64,000 bases of DNA from Sphingobacteriales bacterium (GTDB lineage Bacteria; Bacteroidota; Bacteroidia; Chitinophagales; JADJOU01): positions 6,531-70,530 of the forward strand of contig JAJTHM010000049.1 of the NCBI GenBank assembly GCA_021297855.1, written 5' to 3'. Positions 19,792-28,072 of the stretch are shown one piece after another. The translations under genes were made by a program, and so were the position numbers. The notes beneath the pieces were generated by a model. That model was not told the origin of the DNA, did no database searches, and saw only the letters and a program-made list of their open reading frames with translations. How positions within the stretch are numbered: the stretch's first letter is position 1; the number at the start of each line of letters is the position of its first letter.

Positions 19792-21363
19792 CTATTTAGT
19801 TTGTAACATTGGTATTACACGGACATCATCTGCATTTCCATTCGCTAATTCTCTATCACTACAATCTATACATTCTAGTCCGTCTTCTTTCATTTCCCAG
19901 GTGTGATTGACCATATAATCATCGAACATATTATGCTTATTTTTAATATCATAGATTAGATTTTTTGCACTGTTCGATAAATAAACTTTTTTACCGATAG
20001 GTATATATAAAGTATATCGAACACGTTGATTTCTGAATATAGGTCTTTCTCCCAGTACTTGAAATAATCTATCTATATATAAACTACTATCTGTTTTGAT
20101 GATATTCACTTGGATAGATTTAGCTAAACCATGTGCAAATTCATCTGATTTTCCGTTTGATTTTTGGAGCTTCAAAAGATAAATGTCGTCGGTAGTTGAT
20201 TGCTTAATATTCAGTTCAGTATTTGGAATGACTAATTTACCCTCTTTCATCTTCTGTCCATTGACAGTGATATAATTATTTTCTAATTCATAACTTAAAT
20301 CTTCATTGGAAGATATTTTCAATACCTTGGAATTGTTATTTAAAGCTATTTTTTCTTCGTAAATACCGTCGTAAGACACTTGACTGACCCACATCTTAAT
20401 GACATAACTTCCTAGAAATAGCCCTAAAATCCATAGCCCAAGTAAAATAAGCTTTGCTGTACTATTGAAGAGCGTTTTTTTAGTCAAAATTCTAACCCCC
20501 AAGACAATCATGGCTAAGGCAGGAATTCCAATGACCATAAAAGCGGCGATTATAGTTGTAACAAATAATTTCCCATCGTCTATAAGGTAGTTTTTCATTT
20601 GGCTAAACTCATTTCCTAGATGCAACCAATCTAAATTAGACTGCATGGCTCCAATGAATAATAAGGTCAATACGGAAAACCCAATAATTAAAAGAATCAA
20701 CGCGACAAAATACTTAACTATTCTAATAACAAAATTAATAATGGTGTGCAAGGCTTCGGAGAACTTAGAATTATTTAATGAATTACGCACATTGTCAAAA
20801 TTTTCTTCTAAATTTTGAAGAGTTACAGGCTGACCTTTCATTTGTAATTTCTGAGAATTGGTCTTTGCTTCGGGAATGATGATTATACCGATAATATAAG
20901 CGATTATAGCACTTCCGCCAGTGAGTAGCCCTATGATTGTGAACAAAATTCGAATCCAAATGGGATCATGCAAGCCCAGATATGCGCTCAATCCAGAACA
21001 TATCCCCGAAATAATTTTATCCTCATTATTTCTAAAAAGCTTCTTCTCTGTATGGACATAGTTTAGATTTCCAGATTCCTTCTTGGCCTCTCCTTCTTCA
21101 CCTGCGATGGTAGATGGGTCTCCCATTTTTTTTATTGTTTCTTCCACATCGTTTAGATAAACAATGCTCCTCGAGCTTGATTTTAAATTGCTAGTAAATA
21201 ACTCTGCTATTCGAAATTCAATATCTTGGATAATCTCCTCCTGTTCATCCTTATTTTGAAACTTTGATTTTATGGCAGAGATATATTGCTCTAGTTTATT
21301 GTATGCATCTTCGTCTATGACGAAAGCAATACCACCTAAATTGACTGAAATAGTTTTTTTCAT
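19792..21363 (-). CDS. PspC-domain membrane protein
   Basis: The PspC domain is LFRNNEDKIISGICSGLSAYLGLHDPIWIRILFTII, followed by several TM helices and an extracytoplasmic C-terminal region. It lies immediately downstream of a PadR gene, a pairing common in Bacteroidota. Confidence 0.85.
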   Translation of the reverse strand: MKKTISVNLGGIAFVIDEDAYNKLEQYISAIKSKFQNKDEQEEIIQDIEFRIAELFTSNLKSSSRSIVYLNDVEETIKKMGDPSTIAGEEGEAKKESGNLNYVHTEKKLFRNNEDKIISGICSGLSAYLGLHDPIWIRILFTIIGLLTGGSAIIAYIIGIIIIPEAKTNSQKLQMKGQPVTLQNLEENFDNVRNSLNNSKFSEALHTIINFVIRIVKYFVALILLIIGFSVLTLLFIGAMQSNLDWLHLGNEFSQMKNYLIDDGKLFVTTIIAAFMVIGIPALAMIVLGVRILTKKTLFNSTAKLILLGLWILGLFLGSYVIKMWVSQVSYDGIYEEKIALNNNSKVLKISSNEDLSYELENNYITVNGQKMKEGKLVIPNTELNIKQSTTDDIYLLKLQKSNGKSDEFAHGLAKSIQVNIIKTDSSLYIDRLFQVLGERPIFRNQRVRYTLYIPIGKKVYLSNSAKNLIYDIKNKHNMFDDYMVNHTWEMKEDGLECIDCSDRELANGNADDVRVIPMLQTK

Positions 21364-21381
21364 CTTTATATGTTTAGAAAT

Positions 21382-21705
21382 TTACTTATTTATAATATTA
21401 ATTGCGAGTTCGATTTGTTTCCAAGTAGTTTCTAATTCTTGGTAAAACAATTTTCCTGCATCCGTTATTTTAAAATATTTTCGCGGTGGTCCAGAATTGG
21501 ATTCTTGCCAATAATAGCTCAGGTATTCACTATTTTTCAATCGAGTCAAGATGGGGTATATGGTTCCTTCCACCACTTCGAGCTCTGCTTGATTAAATTC
21601 TTCTAAAATTTCTGAAGCATAAACATCTCGTCGCTGTATGATAGACAAAATACAATACTCTAATATACCTTTTAGCATTTGTGTTTTCGTATTTTCAATA
21701 TTCAT
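21382..21705 (-). CDS. PadR-family transcriptional regulator
   Basis: The 107-aa product has the winged-helix motif GILEYCILSIIQRRDVYASEI...VVEGTIYPILTRLKNSEYL. Confidence 0.9.
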   Translation of the reverse strand: MNIENTKTQMLKGILEYCILSIIQRRDVYASEILEEFNQAELEVVEGTIYPILTRLKNSEYLSYYWQESNSGPPRKYFKITDAGKLFYQELETTWKQIELAINIINK

Positions 21706-21989: not shown

Positions 21990-24437
21990 ATGGCCGCCAG
22001 AATAAACAAAGAACTCAGTTCATTTTTCAATGCGAGTAAATATCAGAAGATAGTAGGAGTATTCCTCCTCATTTTTTCTTTTATACTCTTCTTTAGCTTT
22101 TTATCCTACATATTTAGTTTTCGAATGGATCAAAGCATAGCACTTGAAGGTTGGGACTATATTAAAGAAACAGATCACTATAAAATTCAAAACTGGCTGA
22201 ATAAAATAGGAGTATTTCTTGGATATTTCTTTGTTGATAGCTTGTTTGGGCTAGCTGCTTTTATAATTCCCATCAGTCTTTTTCTTCTCAGTTTGAATCT
22301 CATTTTTGTCAAACGATTATTCTCCTATCTTAAACTTGCATTCTATCCATTTCTTTTTATTTTCATCCTAAGCAGTTTCTTAGCTCTGGTTCAACTTGTT
22401 TTCTTTAGAAGTGGCTATTTCTCTTTAGGCGGCAATTTTGGAAATTTAATCACTGGCCCTAATAGCATACTTCATAATTATTTAGGAACATTTGGCGTTC
22501 TTTTGATTTGGTTTGGTTGTAGCCTGATGGCTTTGGTTTGGTTTGCTAATCTCAACTTCAACTTCATTTTAGAGTGGTTCGAGCATGGCAGGCTGCCTGA
22601 AGAAGAAAAACTATTTAAAGAAGAAATTGTAACTCAAAAGAAAGAAGATAAAATATACAGTGATACTTTATTCGAAAAAGATAATATTGAAGTAATTAAT
22701 AGTGAAAAATTAATAATTAATAATGAGGAGATAATTGGAATGGAATCAAACAATGAGTCTATTGCTGACCAATTGGAAATCAAAAATACCGTCACAGTAG
22801 ATCCAATGAAACCAATAGATGAAATGGAAACTACAGTATTAACTATCATTCCAAAGGTAGAGGAAAAATTAGTAAGTAATGTTTCCGAAATTCAACAAAA
22901 AAATCTGGAGAATTTAGAACCCTATGATCCAAAAAAGGATTTATCGAGCTACAAATATCCTACTATAGACCTATTGGAAAATCATGGTTCTGGAACCACG
23001 ACCATCGATCGAAACGAGCTGGAGAATAATAAAAATCAAATCGTTGAAACACTTAAGAATTTTAATATTTCCATAAGCTCTATCCGAGCCACCGTTGGAC
23101 CTACAGTGACACTTTACGAAATCACTCCCGCACCAGGTGTTCGCGTCTCTACTATTTCTCGTTTAGAAAATGATATAGCGCTTTCTCTTGCAGCCCTAGG
23201 CATACGCATCATAGCCCCCATACCCGGAAAGGGAACAATCGGAATCGAAGTGCCAAACAAAAAAACAGAAATAGTCAGCATGAAATCCGCTATCATGTCT
23301 GAAAAATTTCAGACCACCAAAATGGAACTGCCAATAGCACTCGGCAAAAACATATCGAATGAAATGGTGGTGGTGGATTTAGCTACCATGCCTCACTTAT
23401 TAATGGCAGGAGCTACAGGAAAAGGAAAATCCGTTGGAATCAATGCTATTTTAGTATCTCTCCTATACAAAAAACATCCATCTGAGCTTAAGTTCGTCAT
23501 GGTTGACCCTAAAAAAGTAGAACTAAGCATCTATAGTACTATAGAGAAACATTTCTTAGCTAAGCTGCCCAACGAGGAGGAGCCCATCATTACTGATGTC
23601 AAGAAGGTAGTCAATACATTGAATTCACTCTGTATAGAAATGGACGATCGCTATGATCTTCTAAAAAAAGCAACGGTACGAAATATAAAAGAATACAATG
23701 ATAAATTTAAGAAGAGACAACTCAATCCCTTGCATGGACATCGGTATCTGCCATACTTCGTTTTAGTTATAGATGAATATGCAGATTTGATTATTACAGC
23801 TGGTAAGGAGGTGGAGATGCCTTTAGCCAGAATAGCGCAGCTTGCCAGAGCGATAGGTATTCATGTTATATTAGCTACCCAGCGACCCGCAGCCAATATT
23901 CTGACAGGACTCATTCGCGCTAATTTCCCAACCAAAATAGCTTTTGCCGTATCCAAGGCGATTGATAGTAATATAATTATCGACACTAAGGGAGCAGAAC
24001 AGCTCATTGGACGTGGAGATATGCTCTATAGCCCATCAGGAGGGGATATCATACGCCTTCAATGCCCCTTTGTCGACACCCCTGAGGTAGATAAAATATG
24101 TCAACATATTGCTGAACAGCAGGGTTATGGAGAGGCCTATCAACTGCCAGAGTATTATGGCGATGAAGAACTGGATAGAGAAATAAAATTTGATAAAAAC
24201 GACATAGATCCCCTTTTCGAAGAAGCTGCGAGAGAAATAGTGATACAACAAATTGGCTCCATTTCACTCCTTCAAAGAAAACTAAATGTGGGCCATGGTC
24301 GAGCAGGTAGGCTTGTAGACCAACTCGAGGCGATGGGCATAGTCGGACCCAATAAAGGGAGTAAACCTCGTGATGTCAACTTCAAAACCCTCGACGAACT
24401 CCAACTTTACCTTGACAACTTAAAAAAATCAAAGTAA
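21990..24437 (+). CDS. ftsK: DNA translocase FtsK/SpoIIIE
   Basis: It has N-terminal TM helices and a low-complexity linker. The motor domain has Walker A (AGATGKGKSVGINA) and Walker B (LVIDEYADL). The C-terminal gamma wHTH is SISLLQRKLNVGHGRAGRLVDQLE. Confidence 0.95.
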   Translation: MAARINKELSSFFNASKYQKIVGVFLLIFSFILFFSFLSYIFSFRMDQSIALEGWDYIKETDHYKIQNWLNKIGVFLGYFFVDSLFGLAAFIIPISLFLLSLNLIFVKRLFSYLKLAFYPFLFIFILSSFLALVQLVFFRSGYFSLGGNFGNLITGPNSILHNYLGTFGVLLIWFGCSLMALVWFANLNFNFILEWFEHGRLPEEEKLFKEEIVTQKKEDKIYSDTLFEKDNIEVINSEKLIINNEEIIGMESNNESIADQLEIKNTVTVDPMKPIDEMETTVLTIIPKVEEKLVSNVSEIQQKNLENLEPYDPKKDLSSYKYPTIDLLENHGSGTTTIDRNELENNKNQIVETLKNFNISISSIRATVGPTVTLYEITPAPGVRVSTISRLENDIALSLAALGIRIIAPIPGKGTIGIEVPNKKTEIVSMKSAIMSEKFQTTKMELPIALGKNISNEMVVVDLATMPHLLMAGATGKGKSVGINAILVSLLYKKHPSELKFVMVDPKKVELSIYSTIEKHFLAKLPNEEEPIITDVKKVVNTLNSLCIEMDDRYDLLKKATVRNIKEYNDKFKKRQLNPLHGHRYLPYFVLVIDEYADLIITAGKEVEMPLARIAQLARAIGIHVILATQRPAANILTGLIRANFPTKIAFAVSKAIDSNIIIDTKGAEQLIGRGDMLYSPSGGDIIRLQCPFVDTPEVDKICQHIAEQQGYGEAYQLPEYYGDEELDREIKFDKNDIDPLFEEAAREIVIQQIGSISLLQRKLNVGHGRAGRLVDQLEAMGIVGPNKGSKPRDVNFKTLDELQLYLDNLKKSK

Positions 24438-24476
24438 TTTAAAAAAGGTATTGACAATTGAATTTTATGCCTTATT

Positions 24477-24573
24477 TTTGTACTAGGTTTTCATAGTTGT
24501 AATAACAATTATGTTAGTTTTGTTTTCATAGTATTTTGGAGTTCGGTTCCCCTACCGAACTCCTTCTTTTTTT
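24477..24573 (+). ncRNA. candidate small RNA, copy 1 (own -7 box and intrinsic terminator; TSS not determined)
   Basis: TTGACA lies at 24451-56 and TATTTTTG (TAnnTTTG) at 24473-80. An 8-bp hairpin CATAGTTG/CAATTATG spans 24492-24513. The terminator stem GGAGTTCGGT/ACCGAACTCC spans 24538-24563 and is followed by T7. There is no ORF. The unit is near-identical to copy 2. Confidence 0.55.
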
Positions 24574-24638
24574 AGGCAAGATAAAAAAAGTATTTATTAG
24601 TTTTTTTTAACAACTTCATTTGATATTTTCAGATTATA

Positions 24639-24733
24639 TTTGCACTAGGTTTTCATAGTTGTAATAACAATTATGTTAGTTTTGTTTTCATAGTATTTTG
24701 GAGTTCGGTTCCCCTACCGAACTCCTTCTTTTT
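24639..24733 (+). ncRNA. candidate small RNA, copy 2 (tandem duplicate)
   Basis: It is identical to copy 1 except for one T/C change and T-run length (T5). It is preceded by TATATTTG at 24635-42 and has the same two hairpins and terminator. Confidence 0.55.
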
Positions 24734-24817
24734 ATATCCATCGCAATTTAATTTATCCAGATCAATTCTTTGAATTGAATAGATATTTGCGTGAATACAT
24801 ATAAGAATATGTTCTTC

Positions 24818-25525
24818 TTAATTTCCCAAAGAAAAAATTGCAGGAAGCTTGTGCATCTGAGGTGGAGATTGCGTCTTCCACTCACTGATTTTTTTAGTTT
24901 GAATAATTGACGGCTGTCCTCCTATATTGGCTGCGATACCTAAAAATATATTAGGTGAACAGGTTTTAAGTATTAGTTCAAACAGACCAAGATTTCGATA
25001 AGGCGTCTCCATAAATAACTGGGTTTGACCTTCAGATAATACCCGTGACTCTAGTGATTTAAGTTTCTTTGATTTTTCTGACATATCTATTGGCAAATAG
25101 CCGTTAAAAGCAAAATTCTGACCATTCAACCCACTGACCACAAGTGCCATAAAAATGCTAGATGGTCCAGAAAGTACATCGACTCTAATATTGTGTTTAT
25201 GAGCTAATCGTACAACTTCATTCCCGGGATCAGCTATGCAAGGCATGCCGGCTTCAGACATCAAACCTACACTATGGCCTTGTTTAAACCAAGATTCTAT
25301 TTCTGCAAATGAAAGATTCTTTGAATGTTTATCATATTCAAAAAACTGAACCTCTGAATCAAAATTGGCTTGATAACCATATTTTCTGAGAATGCGGCGA
25401 GCTGTGCGCAAATTTTCGACTACAAAAAAACGAAGATCAGAAATCGACGCCTTAGTATATTCCGTAATATCAGATAAGGAATCCTCAACGATTGGGGTTG
25501 GGATAAGAATAAGTTTAGCCATCAA
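24818..25525 (-). CDS. tetrapyrrole-methylase-fold SAM-dependent methyltransferase (RsmI-like)
   Basis: The N-terminal LILIPTPIVEDSLSDIT, a mid motif SEAGMPCIADPG, and GPSSIFMALVVSG resemble the RsmI / TP_methylase family. Confidence 0.7.
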   Translation of the reverse strand: MMAKLILIPTPIVEDSLSDITEYTKASISDLRFFVVENLRTARRILRKYGYQANFDSEVQFFEYDKHSKNLSFAEIESWFKQGHSVGLMSEAGMPCIADPGNEVVRLAHKHNIRVDVLSGPSSIFMALVVSGLNGQNFAFNGYLPIDMSEKSKKLKSLESRVLSEGQTQLFMETPYRNLGLFELILKTCSPNIFLGIAANIGGQPSIIQTKKISEWKTQSPPQMHKLPAIFSLGN

Positions 25526-25528
25526 TAA

Positions 25529-27151
25529 TTACCAGCTAATTTTAACTACCTTTCTACCTTGATCAGACTTAGCTTCTACAATATAAATTCCATTTACCAA
25601 AGAAGAAAAATCAATCATTAAATCCCTATTTCGAGTCATTTTATTGGCCACTTGCTGTCCTAAGGAATTATAGACACTTAATTCATATCCTGATTCTAGC
25701 CAAGATACTTCCAATTGATTTGCATTGAAGGTAAAATTAAATTTTTCGGCTTCCCTATTTTCTGAAATAGAAGCAGGGGCGCCCGATAACTTGACAGAAC
25801 GCACCGTCATGGCGCCAGTATTTCCAGGATCAAGCCAGGGTTTTAGTCTTCTATCACTTGATGAACCGTATTTATCCCAATGCATAAAAAATCGACCATA
25901 AAAATCTGTTCCATCTAAGTTGGTACATAAAGCTGAACCTCCTGTCAAGGTACCAATCAGTAACCCATTGCTATTGACCAATGCCGAACCAGATGAACCC
26001 TCATCTGTGACGGAGCGACCTCCAGAAGTTGAAGTCCATTTCATTGAAAAATGTGTATTCATTACATTGCCTCCATAGCTCGAAAGGGTAGCCCAATCAT
26101 TCGATGTACTAATCTTTTTTATATCACCTTTTGGATGATGATAACAAAAATTGCCAAAATAATTGCCATCAGCGCGATCCCAACCTAAAAAAGTAAAGTC
26201 ATAAGTAGCGGTCGATAGCGCAGAGTTCATTTTTAATAATAAAAAATCAGAAGAATTCTCTCCGTTATCAGTTCCTGAATATGCAGGAGCCGTGCATCCT
26301 TTGTAAGTTAAAGCAGCAGGCTCGCTAGAAGGGTTTGAACATGATAAGGATTGGTAGAGAAAATCAAATTCCCAATTGACCAAATCGGTTATGGTGCTTT
26401 TGGCGCTACAATGATTAGCTGTCAAAACATACGGTGTTTTATCCTCAGAGGTATTATTCACTAATGTGCCACTGCAGAAGCCAGAGAACTTAGTACCAGT
26501 GACTCTTATTCGGCAAGCCGCATCGCGTGCAGCAGGCTTAGCATTTCCTTCCGAGCAAATTGCATTGATCATGCACGACCCAGCCTGACCGAATCCATTT
26601 CCGTTTCCACTTTTCAATCCTCTAAAATAATGATAAACTCGAGAAATGACAAAGTCATTCGTCTTGACGTTTTTGGGTTCTATGTATTCCACTATAATTT
26701 CATTTCCTAAAACATGCGAAGTCAAAAACCCACCATTTAATTGGTAATTATCCTTCTCCGTGTATAAGCCGGCAAAATAAGTTCTTTCTTTATTATACAG
26801 CCACAACTTAGCTTTACCTTCTAGTTTGAAATTTTCAAACATGACCATAAGTCCGAGGGCATTTGGCGACTTTATTATCAGTCTATATACCTTATCGCTA
26901 TTTGGCAAAATTTCTGCCAAGGTAAATTCTGAGAAATTGATTTGTGTCGGAATAGCTGTGGCGCAAATATAGGACGCGTGTTTTACTTCTTTTAGTCTCT
27001 CTATTTCAATTGCATCCGCCTTAATCTCTTTAGTAACTATAGCGGACCACTTTCCATCTCGCATCCAACTCTCTGGCGGTAGATTCTTATTCCCAAATTG
27101 GGCTAGAATAAAAATAGGACAGAAAACTACAAAATATACAACCTGTTTCAT
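25529..27151 (-). CDS. secreted trypsin-fold (S1, lysyl-endopeptidase-like) serine protease with T9SS type-A C-terminal sorting domain
   Basis: A signal peptide follows the ATG at 27151 (MKQVVYFVVFCPIFILAQ). The catalytic His lies in VLTANHC and the Ser in DEGSSGSALV. The C-terminus ...VNGIYIVEAKSDQGRKVVKISW is a typical Por/T9SS CTD. Confidence 0.8.
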   Translation of the reverse strand: MKQVVYFVVFCPIFILAQFGNKNLPPESWMRDGKWSAIVTKEIKADAIEIERLKEVKHASYICATAIPTQINFSEFTLAEILPNSDKVYRLIIKSPNALGLMVMFENFKLEGKAKLWLYNKERTYFAGLYTEKDNYQLNGGFLTSHVLGNEIIVEYIEPKNVKTNDFVISRVYHYFRGLKSGNGNGFGQAGSCMINAICSEGNAKPAARDAACRIRVTGTKFSGFCSGTLVNNTSEDKTPYVLTANHCSAKSTITDLVNWEFDFLYQSLSCSNPSSEPAALTYKGCTAPAYSGTDNGENSSDFLLLKMNSALSTATYDFTFLGWDRADGNYFGNFCYHHPKGDIKKISTSNDWATLSSYGGNVMNTHFSMKWTSTSGGRSVTDEGSSGSALVNSNGLLIGTLTGGSALCTNLDGTDFYGRFFMHWDKYGSSSDRRLKPWLDPGNTGAMTVRSVKLSGAPASISENREAEKFNFTFNANQLEVSWLESGYELSVYNSLGQQVANKMTRNRDLMIDFSSLVNGIYIVEAKSDQGRKVVKISW

Positions 27152-27451
27152 GTTAAGGACTTTAGGCAAAGATAAGCAGTTTTTGAAGAAAATAGAAAAA
27201 GGACTGACAAATCCTTCAATGACTTTAAACTTGGAGCCTCCATCATGACTACTATATAAAGTTTGAGCTAATTCCTAATAAGTCTTTTATAGGACTATAA
27301 TAATTTGACAATAAAAACAAACAATTTCGTTCATTTAATACCTTACTAAATCACAAAATATGACGCAAGCTTGAGGCTTTTTTTGTCGAATTTGTATTTT
27401 TTTCTTTTAAGTTTTTATTAATTCAATAAATTTGCCTATAAACTATTTACT

Positions 27452-28072
27452 ATGAACACTAAAATTACAATTGTTTTTTTTACATTACTATTTTTAAATC
27501 TCAGCGCACAGAAAAATTATTTTGGTGCCAGATTGGGCATCTCATCTATGTATGTTTCCGAATCACAAGGCAAATTGAAAGGAGATTATGATAGCAGAGT
27601 AGGCTTCAATGCAGCTTTGTTTGTGGAATTGGGTATTGGGAAGTATTTCAGCTTCCAACCTGAATTGAATTTTACAAATAAAGGCTATAAGTTTAATCAG
27701 GGTCAGTCTATCAATATTAAGTTTAATTACTTAGAGGTTCCTGTCATTTTAAAACCAAAAATTCCTGTTGGTGATGCCTTGGAGCTTTATGGAGAACTTG
27801 GACCTTCCTTTTCCCTTGGACTAGGAGGAGAAGCGGTTGTAAATAATCAAACCTATGGTGATTTATTTGGAGATGGAGCATATAATAGTTTCGACTTCGG
27901 ACTAAACTATGGGGGAGGTTTTAACGTTAAACTGAACTCTGGCTACAAATTTGGATTGGGAATTCGCTTTTTCAAAGGCTTGAGCGAACTATACCCAACA
28001 AATCCGGGCAATGTAGCTGGAAGAAACAACGGATTTATACTTGGCTTTAACTTATCGAAATCTATAGATTAA
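27452..28072 (+). CDS. small outer-membrane beta-barrel protein (OMP_b-brl_2 / porin-family-like)
   Basis: It has a signal peptide (FFTLLFLNLSAQ), alternating amphipathic beta-strand pattern, G/Y/F-rich strands and a C-terminal aromatic-rich strand (GFILGFNL). Confidence 0.65.
   Translation: MNTKITIVFFTLLFLNLSAQKNYFGARLGISSMYVSESQGKLKGDYDSRVGFNAALFVELGIGKYFSFQPELNFTNKGYKFNQGQSINIKFNYLEVPVILKPKIPVGDALELYGELGPSFSLGLGGEAVVNNQTYGDLFGDGAYNSFDFGLNYGGGFNVKLNSGYKFGLGIRFFKGLSELYPTNPGNVAGRNNGFILGFNLSKSID

Follow-up and report, generated by a model that had tools for sequence, protein, structure and literature searches.

What are the two nearly identical units of about 90 nt that stand in tandem between ftsK and a convergent methyltransferase gene in a Chitinophagales genome, and how could they act? 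The units lie in a 64,000-nt stretch of Sphingobacteriales bacterium DNA (assembly GCA_021297855.1, contig JAJTHM010000049.1, positions 6,531 to 70,530), referred to here as the window, and all coordinates without a locus name are positions in it. The original prediction took them for two small RNA (sRNA) paralogues of an unnamed family that would cover start codons with a UUUUCAU seed. The reading that we favour, with moderate confidence, is that they are genes of a previously undescribed multicopy ('sibling') sRNA family, probably antisense in trans.

The units form a direct repeat with a period of 162, in which 24455-24574 pairs with 24617-24736. From 24477/24639 onward the copies differ only at one base (T24481 vs C24643) and in the T-run (CTCCTTCTTTTTTT vs CTCCTTCTTTTT), and one more difference lies inside the -7 box (T24476 vs A24638). 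Reading and repeat analysis thereby confirmed the near-identical tandem units and the sequence features first ascribed to them. Copy 1 (24485..24573) and copy 2 (24647..24733), both on the + strand, score 111.5 bits each with cmsearch (E = 4e-20 for copy 1) and share one layout. A 5' single strand, AGGUUUU (24485-91 and 24647-53), is followed by hairpin 1 (24492-24513 and 24654-24675) and by an invariant 28-nt core, UUAGUUUUGUUUUCAUAGUAUUUUGGAG (24514-24541 and 24676-24703), of which the first 24 nt (24514-24537 and 24676-24699) are unpaired. The last 4 nt of the core, GGAG, open the terminator stem-loop (24538-24563 and 24700-24725), and a U-run closes the unit (24564-24573 and 24726-24733). 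In the window units hairpin 1 has 9 bp (CAUAGUUGU-AAUA-ACAAUUAUG, with one G-U pair), and the whole unit folds with a minimum free energy of -26 kcal/mol (z = -6.2 for copy 1 and -6.4 for copy 2 against dinucleotide shuffles). The motif TTTTCATAG occurs twice per unit, the first time mostly within the hairpin stem and the second time unpaired. Between the units lies a spacer (24574..24634) that bears no similarity to the sequence in front of copy 1 and varies from genome to genome. When the full 64 kb was scanned with a covariance model and the filters switched off, these two were the only copies to appear.

Each unit has its own putative start and stop signals. The promoter of copy 1 (24451..24480, + strand) combines TTGACA, a -33-like element at 24451-56, with the -7 box TATTTTTG at 24473-80, and copy 2 is preceded by the -7 box TATATTTG (24635..24642, + strand); the TAnnTTTG boxes and the TTGACA are located exactly where they had been described. 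TAnnTTTG, or TTTG, is the sigma-ABfr -7 consensus of Bacteroidota (PMC7366714). Across the family, all 26 distinct upstream regions have a -7 box at -12/-13 from the invariant AGG, in the form TAnnTTTG in 25 and TAATATTG in one, and the remaining upstream DNA is unconserved. In many first copies TTGACA stands about 17 nt 5' of the -7 box, near -33. By the usual spacing between -7 box and start in Bacteroides promoters, the RNA would begin with the A of (A)AGGUUUU, at A24485 in copy 1 and at A24647 in copy 2. Regarding the 3' ends, a terminator scan called intrinsic terminators of the form GGAGTTCGGT-TCCCCT-ACCGAACTCC, each with a T-run, at 24538-63 and 24700-25, in agreement with the GC-rich terminator per unit noticed earlier. 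This 26-mer occurs twice in the window against 0.00 expected in shuffles, and every family copy ends in a 10-bp GC-rich stem and a U-run. These motifs support the view that each unit is transcribed independently from its own promoter and ended by its own terminator. No terminator lies between the ftsK stop codon and the first promoter, so the terminator of copy 1 should also stop read-through from ftsK.

In order to place the units in a family, relatives were reached by a graded series of FtsK homologues and the DNA after ftsK was fetched for each; units were collected from these synteny look-ups and from two pattern scans. The census comprises about 45 units on about 25 contigs; as aligned rows 21 of the units differ from one another, and 18 do when T-tail length is ignored. 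All carriers are Chitinophagales/"Saprospirales" metagenome-assembled genomes (MAGs), from freshwater and activated-sludge metagenomes, and as far as sampled the family is confined to one lineage of uncultured Chitinophagales/Saprospirales. The genome scan, with the 22-mer TTTTGTTTTCATAGTATTTTGG and one genome per species (185,579 species), gave nine places: five hold complete units and belong to three MAG species (two "Saprospirales" and one Chitinophagales), and the other four are chance matches from which the rest of the unit is absent. The metagenome scan used the pattern AGGTTTT..TTAGTTTTG..TTTTGGAG, in which the CAU part was left free, and gave 47 places. Eleven of these are real units, all with the identical TTTTCATAGTA in the free segment, and the 36 chance matches resemble the unit in nothing.

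No copy found departs from the 5' AGGUUUU or from the 28-nt core. The invariance extends to the 11 nt UUUUCAUAGUA that the metagenome pattern had left free, and it also holds in copies reached only through synteny with ftsK or with an outer-membrane protein (OMP) gene. Between both invariant segments, hairpin 1 appears in five unrelated versions, each of them self-complementary: type A (CAUAGUUGU/ACAAUUAUG, with variation in the loop and one U-A pair turned to A-U), type B (CAUAA-UCUCGUC/GACGAGA-UUAUG), type C (CACGGAA/UUCCGUG), type D (CUAGAUA/UAUCUAG) and type E (CUCGAC/GUCGGG, or CCCGAU/GUCGGG). When folded one by one, 10/10 hairpin-1 sequence variants form a hairpin at the same position, at -6.5 to -11.9 kcal/mol, and the core has an unpaired probability of 0.88 across them. 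The terminator retains GGAG...CUCC and covaries at three pairs, the changes in its interior being compensatory (UUCGG/CCGAA, CUAGG/CCUAG and CUUGG/CCAAG). Standard pairs fill 94-95% of the cells, against 33-48% when partners are slid by 1-3 columns, two-sided changes are found in 9-10/18 pairs, and the observed values were reached by 0-1/500 column shuffles, depending on the measure; these pair counts understate hairpin 1, because type E lies one column out of register in both the MAFFT and the model alignments. RNAalifold on the model-fitted alignment recovered the terminator alone, because the hairpin-1 types differ in length and register, and the support for the structure was taken from the per-sequence folds and explicit pair counts in its place.

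The units were also compared with their surroundings in three relatives (L007, L069 and L008). They are 99-100% identical to those of the window, against 79-89% for the last 600 nt of ftsK, 69-92% for the methylase gene, 73-84% for the inter-unit spacer (84% in L007, 73% in L069) and 50-85% for the 3' flank. The units are more alike than their neighbours, and the transcribed unit, the type-A hairpin of orthologous copies included, is therefore under stronger constraint than the adjoining protein genes. Paralogues at other loci keep the core and have hairpins of other types. Taken together, these comparisons document the family, its structure, its conservation and its promoter and terminator motifs. 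The proposal of two sRNA paralogues of an unnamed family is supported by the promoter boxes, the separate terminators, the covariation of both helices, the conservation above that of neighbouring genes and the lack of any Rfam match at gathering score. As checked by sequence, the units are not widely dispersed, belong to no Rfam family, and are conserved with covariation.

The position of the copies bears on whether they could instead be a repeat without function, either a terminator/promoter cassette or a selfish repeat resembling repetitive extragenic palindromes (REP) or miniature inverted-repeat transposable elements (MITE), lodged after ftsK. The tandem arrangement, the breaking of several contigs within arrays and the double duty of the first unit as ftsK terminator would suit such an origin. 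However, only two copies exist in 64 kb, the core is found at five genuine loci in three MAGs among the 185,579 species genomes, and copies occupy syntenic positions in different genomes. No terminal inverted repeats were seen in the unit, target-site duplications not having been specifically looked for; a -7 box at a fixed distance is not expected of a REP element, and a role as terminator leaves both the invariant 28-nt segment and the conservation above that of genes unexplained. This explanation is largely refuted and we consider it extremely improbable. A phage or mobile origin was rejected as well, as a pattern search of viral contigs gave no match to the family.

At least four syntenic positions were identified. 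The first is after ftsK, with one to four tandem copies, and the family was found there in relatives whose FtsK is 69-100% identical. An identical FtsK occurs in MAGs labelled Chitinophagales bacterium (GCA_047340465.1, GCA_046339495.1 and GCA_046338445.1) and in JGI metagenomes, and both units are present in four same-species contigs. In GCA_046338445.1 (L005:5441-5700, compared with window 24430-24830) there is one chimeric unit, in which the copy 1 promoter is joined to the 3' flank of copy 2, and the locus is exactly 162 bp shorter than in the window; either the tandem repeat collapsed during assembly or recombination has truly deleted DNA here. Two units follow ftsK in L007 (FtsK 94% identical) and in L069 (GCA_016787225.1, reached via its OMP gene), three in L008 (85%) and four in L010 (78%), where the next gene is different, co-directional and gyrB/parE-like by eye without a Pfam match. 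L011 (75%) has one unit followed by a pyridine-nucleotide oxidoreductase gene, and a second unit 9 kb away. In L073 (73%) the contig ends inside a unit, and L074 (69%) shows a promoter and the first part of a unit, its hairpin a new one, before the contig ends. No unit follows ftsK in L009 (83%) or L012 (67%), and a covariance-model scan of the fetched DNA found no diverged copies in either. The units stay after ftsK where other genes replace the methylase gene, as in L010 and L011.

At the second position the unit diverges from rplM-rpsI and precedes, by 60 nt, a TonB-dependent/OMP_b-brl_3 gene read from the same strand, and the hairpin is of type E (L020, L021, L048, L050, L059 and L023). 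At the third, a polysaccharide deacetylase gene stands on one side and a convergent PALP-enzyme gene on the other (L016, type D, and the second unit of L011); the fourth lies between an OMP_b-brl gene and a Wzy_C gene (L053, type B). The first and second positions are both occupied in each of two MAGs. This is a small multigene family at syntenic sites, as opposed to a dispersed repeat. In the four-copy array of L010 (L010:12516-13087), one terminator-loop variant is found in copies 1 and 3 and another in copies 2 and 4, which indicates duplication of a two-unit block; the type-C hairpin is seen in copy 1 alone. Contigs end inside a unit or array after ftsK in L022 (end 4560), L029 (end 4997), L073 (end 12546) and L074 (end 12636). 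Because repeats break short-read assemblies, copy numbers in MAGs are lower bounds, and such arrays at the ftsK locus matter for MAG quality.

The rplM locus also raises the question of a cis-acting role. A leader or attenuator, or a micro-peptide gene encoding MLVLFS on the + strand or MKTKLT on the - strand (with the textbook start region CCAAAAUACUAUG), would account for the unit in another way. The rplM-locus unit does stand 60 nt upstream of a same-strand TonB-dependent/OMP gene with no obvious strong promoter between them, and the mini-ORFs (open reading frames) do exist in the window copies. A leader role is impossible at the ftsK locus, because the downstream gene there is convergent. 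The single + strand frame within the unit is the 6-codon MLVLFS*, and three of the five hairpin types (C, D and E) lack its ATG, so the earlier statement that no ORF is present was effectively right. On the - strand the ORF varies from 6 to about 21 codons, is unrelated in sequence, and has neither promoter box nor U-run. These explanations are very improbable, and the lost + strand ATG and the variable - strand ORF speak against a conserved ORF on either strand, as in a small-ORF gene or a type I toxin-antitoxin pair.

Two further features were noted at the rplM locus. A perfect 10-bp palindrome, TTTCTAGAAA, lies just upstream of the -7 box (L020:5653-5662, and also in L021, L048, L050 and L059; altered in L023) and may serve as an operator through which this paralogue is regulated separately. 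In the 60 nt from the sRNA terminator to the start of the TonB-dependent/OMP_b-brl_3 gene (L020:5762-5822), the sole promoter-like element is a weak -7-like box, TATCTTCG, and read-through from the sRNA promoter may add to the expression of that gene.

How such an RNA might act is best approached through known systems, as sRNAs of the sibling kind are already known. PrrF1/2, OmrA/B, LhrC1-5 and NgncR_162/163 are head-to-tail, near-identical siblings, each with its own promoter and terminator and with a common unpaired seed, and their copy number varies among relatives as it does in the Chitinophagales family. These tandem siblings of other phyla are, however, unrelated to it in sequence, depend on Hfq in Proteobacteria and have shorter seeds. 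Bacteroidota, to our knowledge, have neither Hfq nor ProQ and do not use Shine-Dalgarno (SD) initiation. The family is most like FopS/GibS of Bacteroides thetaiotaomicron, with which it shares the phylum, an intergenic or 3'-end location, AT-richness, a length of about 100 nt, TAnnTTTG promoters, an intrinsic terminator, a long conserved single-stranded segment and multicopy paralogues. AT-richness and a long single-stranded seed are common to the Bacteroides sRNAs GibS, FopS and MasB (PMC7366714, PMC11697453, PMC10994844). FopS has 14 members with sigma-ABfr promoters (PMC11697453), and GibS and FopS pair at or next to the start codons of SD-less mRNAs and block initiation (PMC7366714, PMC11697453). 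The authors of the FopS and GibS studies suggest that AT-rich, unstructured Bacteroides sRNAs may need longer seeds (PMC11697453, PMC7366714). Start-codon pairing is demonstrated for FopS/GibS, and the same action is proposed here. The two also differ in that neither sequence nor covariance models reveal similarity, and in that FopS passes directly from a 5' seed to the terminator, whereas the Chitinophagales RNA has a 7-nt 5' end, a variable hairpin, an internal 24-nt single strand and then the terminator. Tandem arrays after ftsK and environmental Chitinophagales/Saprospirales hosts further set it apart.

Searches of Rfam agree with this separation. No family, tRNA, rRNA and riboswitches included, reaches its gathering score in window 1-64000, and a permissive scan of 24300-24900 (E <= 10) gave only noise, with E > 3. 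FopS/GibS gave no match at E <= 10 in 24300-24900 or at E <= 1 in two relatives' loci, the presence of a FopS/GibS model in that copy of Rfam being unconfirmed; the FopS consensus structure is stated as deposited in Rfam (PMC11697453). The sole sub-threshold match is to RF04177 (BTnc201, which is MasB), with 23.8 bits and E = 0.02 against a gathering score of 105, at L020:5685-5762 in the type-E paralogue of the rplM locus; the window units do not match it at E <= 10. MasB has the same layout, with a short 5' end, a hairpin, a U/G-rich unpaired linker (UUUGUUUUGUUUGUGU against UUAGUUUUGUUUUCAUAGUAU) and a terminator, and pairs through its internal linker about 40 nt downstream of the start codon of its target (PMC10994844). 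Unlike the Chitinophagales RNA, MasB has a single copy and a narrow conservation within Bacteroides. What the two have in common is mostly generic (hairpin, U-rich linker, terminator) and amounts to a resemblance of layout, not membership. A literature search found no paper on Saprospiraceae sRNAs, and the family is undescribed by any Rfam model or paper found.

A trans-acting antisense RNA appears to be the most likely mechanism and the one best supported by the analysis. We infer transcription, the 5' end, mRNA pairing and repression from sequence features. A sigma-ABfr-type promoter would start the RNA at the A of AGGUUUU and its own intrinsic terminator would end it, giving about 80-90 nt laid out as 5' single strand, hairpin 1, a 24-nt unpaired U-rich segment and terminator. 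Pairing with A-rich initiation regions of SD-less mRNAs would be through the invariant unpaired UUAGUUUUGUUUUCAUAGUAUUUU, perhaps aided by the 5' AGGUUUU, and would block translation initiation on the model of GibS and FopS in Bacteroides. The tandem copy number (1-4) would set the dose, and since the paralogues differ in locus, promoter and hairpin-1 type, they could be differentially expressed.

The proposed UUUUCAU seed fared differently in its two occurrences. The second UUUUCAUAG is invariant and unpaired in all copies and fits a seed; the first is unconserved, being paralogue-specific and half buried in the stem, and hairpin types C, D and E have CAC, UCU or CUC in its place, together with compensatory changes. 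On the minus strand of window 24485-24541, the reverse complement of the core reads as a near-ideal Bacteroidota start region followed by ATG AAA ACA AAA CTA (MKTKL...), and of the four chance matches to the 22-mer, two (L013 and L014, from unrelated genomes) are antisense to plausible gene starts (MKTK...). The complement of the core thus corresponds to a start region such as occurs in nature, and no more than that follows. A 7-nt match to AUGAAAA would fit a large share of secreted-protein genes and so makes no specific prediction.

Several results weigh against antisense pairing with start regions, the target tests drawing on about 300 kb of DNA from sRNA-bearing genomes. Duplex energies (duplexfold) of the core with 52 window start regions were no better than those of 200 shuffled cores. 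With the CAU:AUG register fixed, 164 start regions matched at 8.4 of 23 positions, against 7.9 ± 0.25 for shuffled templates, a marginal difference. Core near-complements (28-mers with <=8 mismatches, exact 11-mers) in the ~300 kb were chance matches inside genes only. The best candidate target in the window, a PorT-family OMP gene at 27452 (UACUAUGAA), 2.7 kb downstream, was rejected: its site is identical in the relative with 94% FtsK identity (L007) and lost in L069, despite an identical sRNA there. The search patterns force part of the observed invariance, and the 28 invariant unpaired nt exceed the usual need of a seed and would equally fit a protein-binding site. The anti-start-codon mechanism as originally worded is unsupported, since the core pairs with start regions no better than shuffled cores do, and the best candidate target is unconserved; the mechanism itself is neither shown nor excluded.

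The length of the unpaired segment brings in the main rival to the antisense reading, namely that the RNA is real but binds protein, its GUUUU motifs (AG-GUUUU-C, UA-GUUUU-GUUUU-C and A-UUUUG-G) titrating or recruiting a single-strand RNA-binding protein. Such a protein could be RbpB or another of the RRM-1 type, ribosomal protein S1 or a cold-shock protein. The 35 invariant unpaired nt (7 + 28) in all copies are more than a seed normally needs, three or four GUUUU-like repeats are legible in the sequence, and no mRNA target is detectable in the start-region and conservation tests. Tandem amplification suggests that dose matters, and RbpB, an RRM-1 protein, binds multicopy sRNAs in Bacteroides (PMC11697453). 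However, the repeats are short and may merely reflect U-richness, and the known RbpB-bound sRNAs of Bacteroidota still act by base pairing. On balance, protein binding seems unlikely as the principal function.

The start-region character of the core complement suggests still another possibility, a general 'anti-initiation-region' RNA. Its invariant 26-nt U-rich segment, centred on CAU, complements a near-consensus Bacteroidota start region (CCAAAAUACU-AUG-AAAACAAAAC) and might globally mask the start codons of a broad SD-less class, for example secreted proteins starting with MK, or compete for an initiation factor, S1 or an RRM protein. We regard this as quite improbable; if true, it would amount to a dose-dependent control of translation initiation and not to a specific regulon.

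Compared with these alternatives, an sRNA family that is probably antisense in trans remains the favoured reading. Outside gut Bacteroides, little is known of post-transcriptional control in Bacteroidota, and this is a new, well-supported RNA family from environmental, uncultured Chitinophagales/Saprospirales. With an unusually long invariant unpaired segment, paralogue-specific hairpins and variable tandem copy number, it lends itself well to an Rfam entry and to experiments. Should start regions prove to be its targets, the principle of FopS/GibS, in which long U-rich seeds occlude A-rich starts, would extend across the phylum.

Regarding the neighbouring genes of the window, Pfam confirmed the location between convergent ftsK and methyltransferase genes. 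The gene 5' of the units is ftsK (21990..24437, + strand), and the convergent gene, which lies outside the element, is of the TP_methylase family (24818..25525, - strand). Directly upstream of ftsK and divergent from it are a PadR-family regulator gene and then a gene for a PspC-domain/toast-rack membrane protein (19792-21705, - strand), a pair that is kept in close relatives. Beyond the methylase gene lie the genes of a trypsin-like protease with a C-terminal sorting domain of the type IX secretion system (25529-27169, - strand) and of a PorT-family outer-membrane beta-barrel protein (27452-28072, + strand), which together mark a type IX secretion organism.

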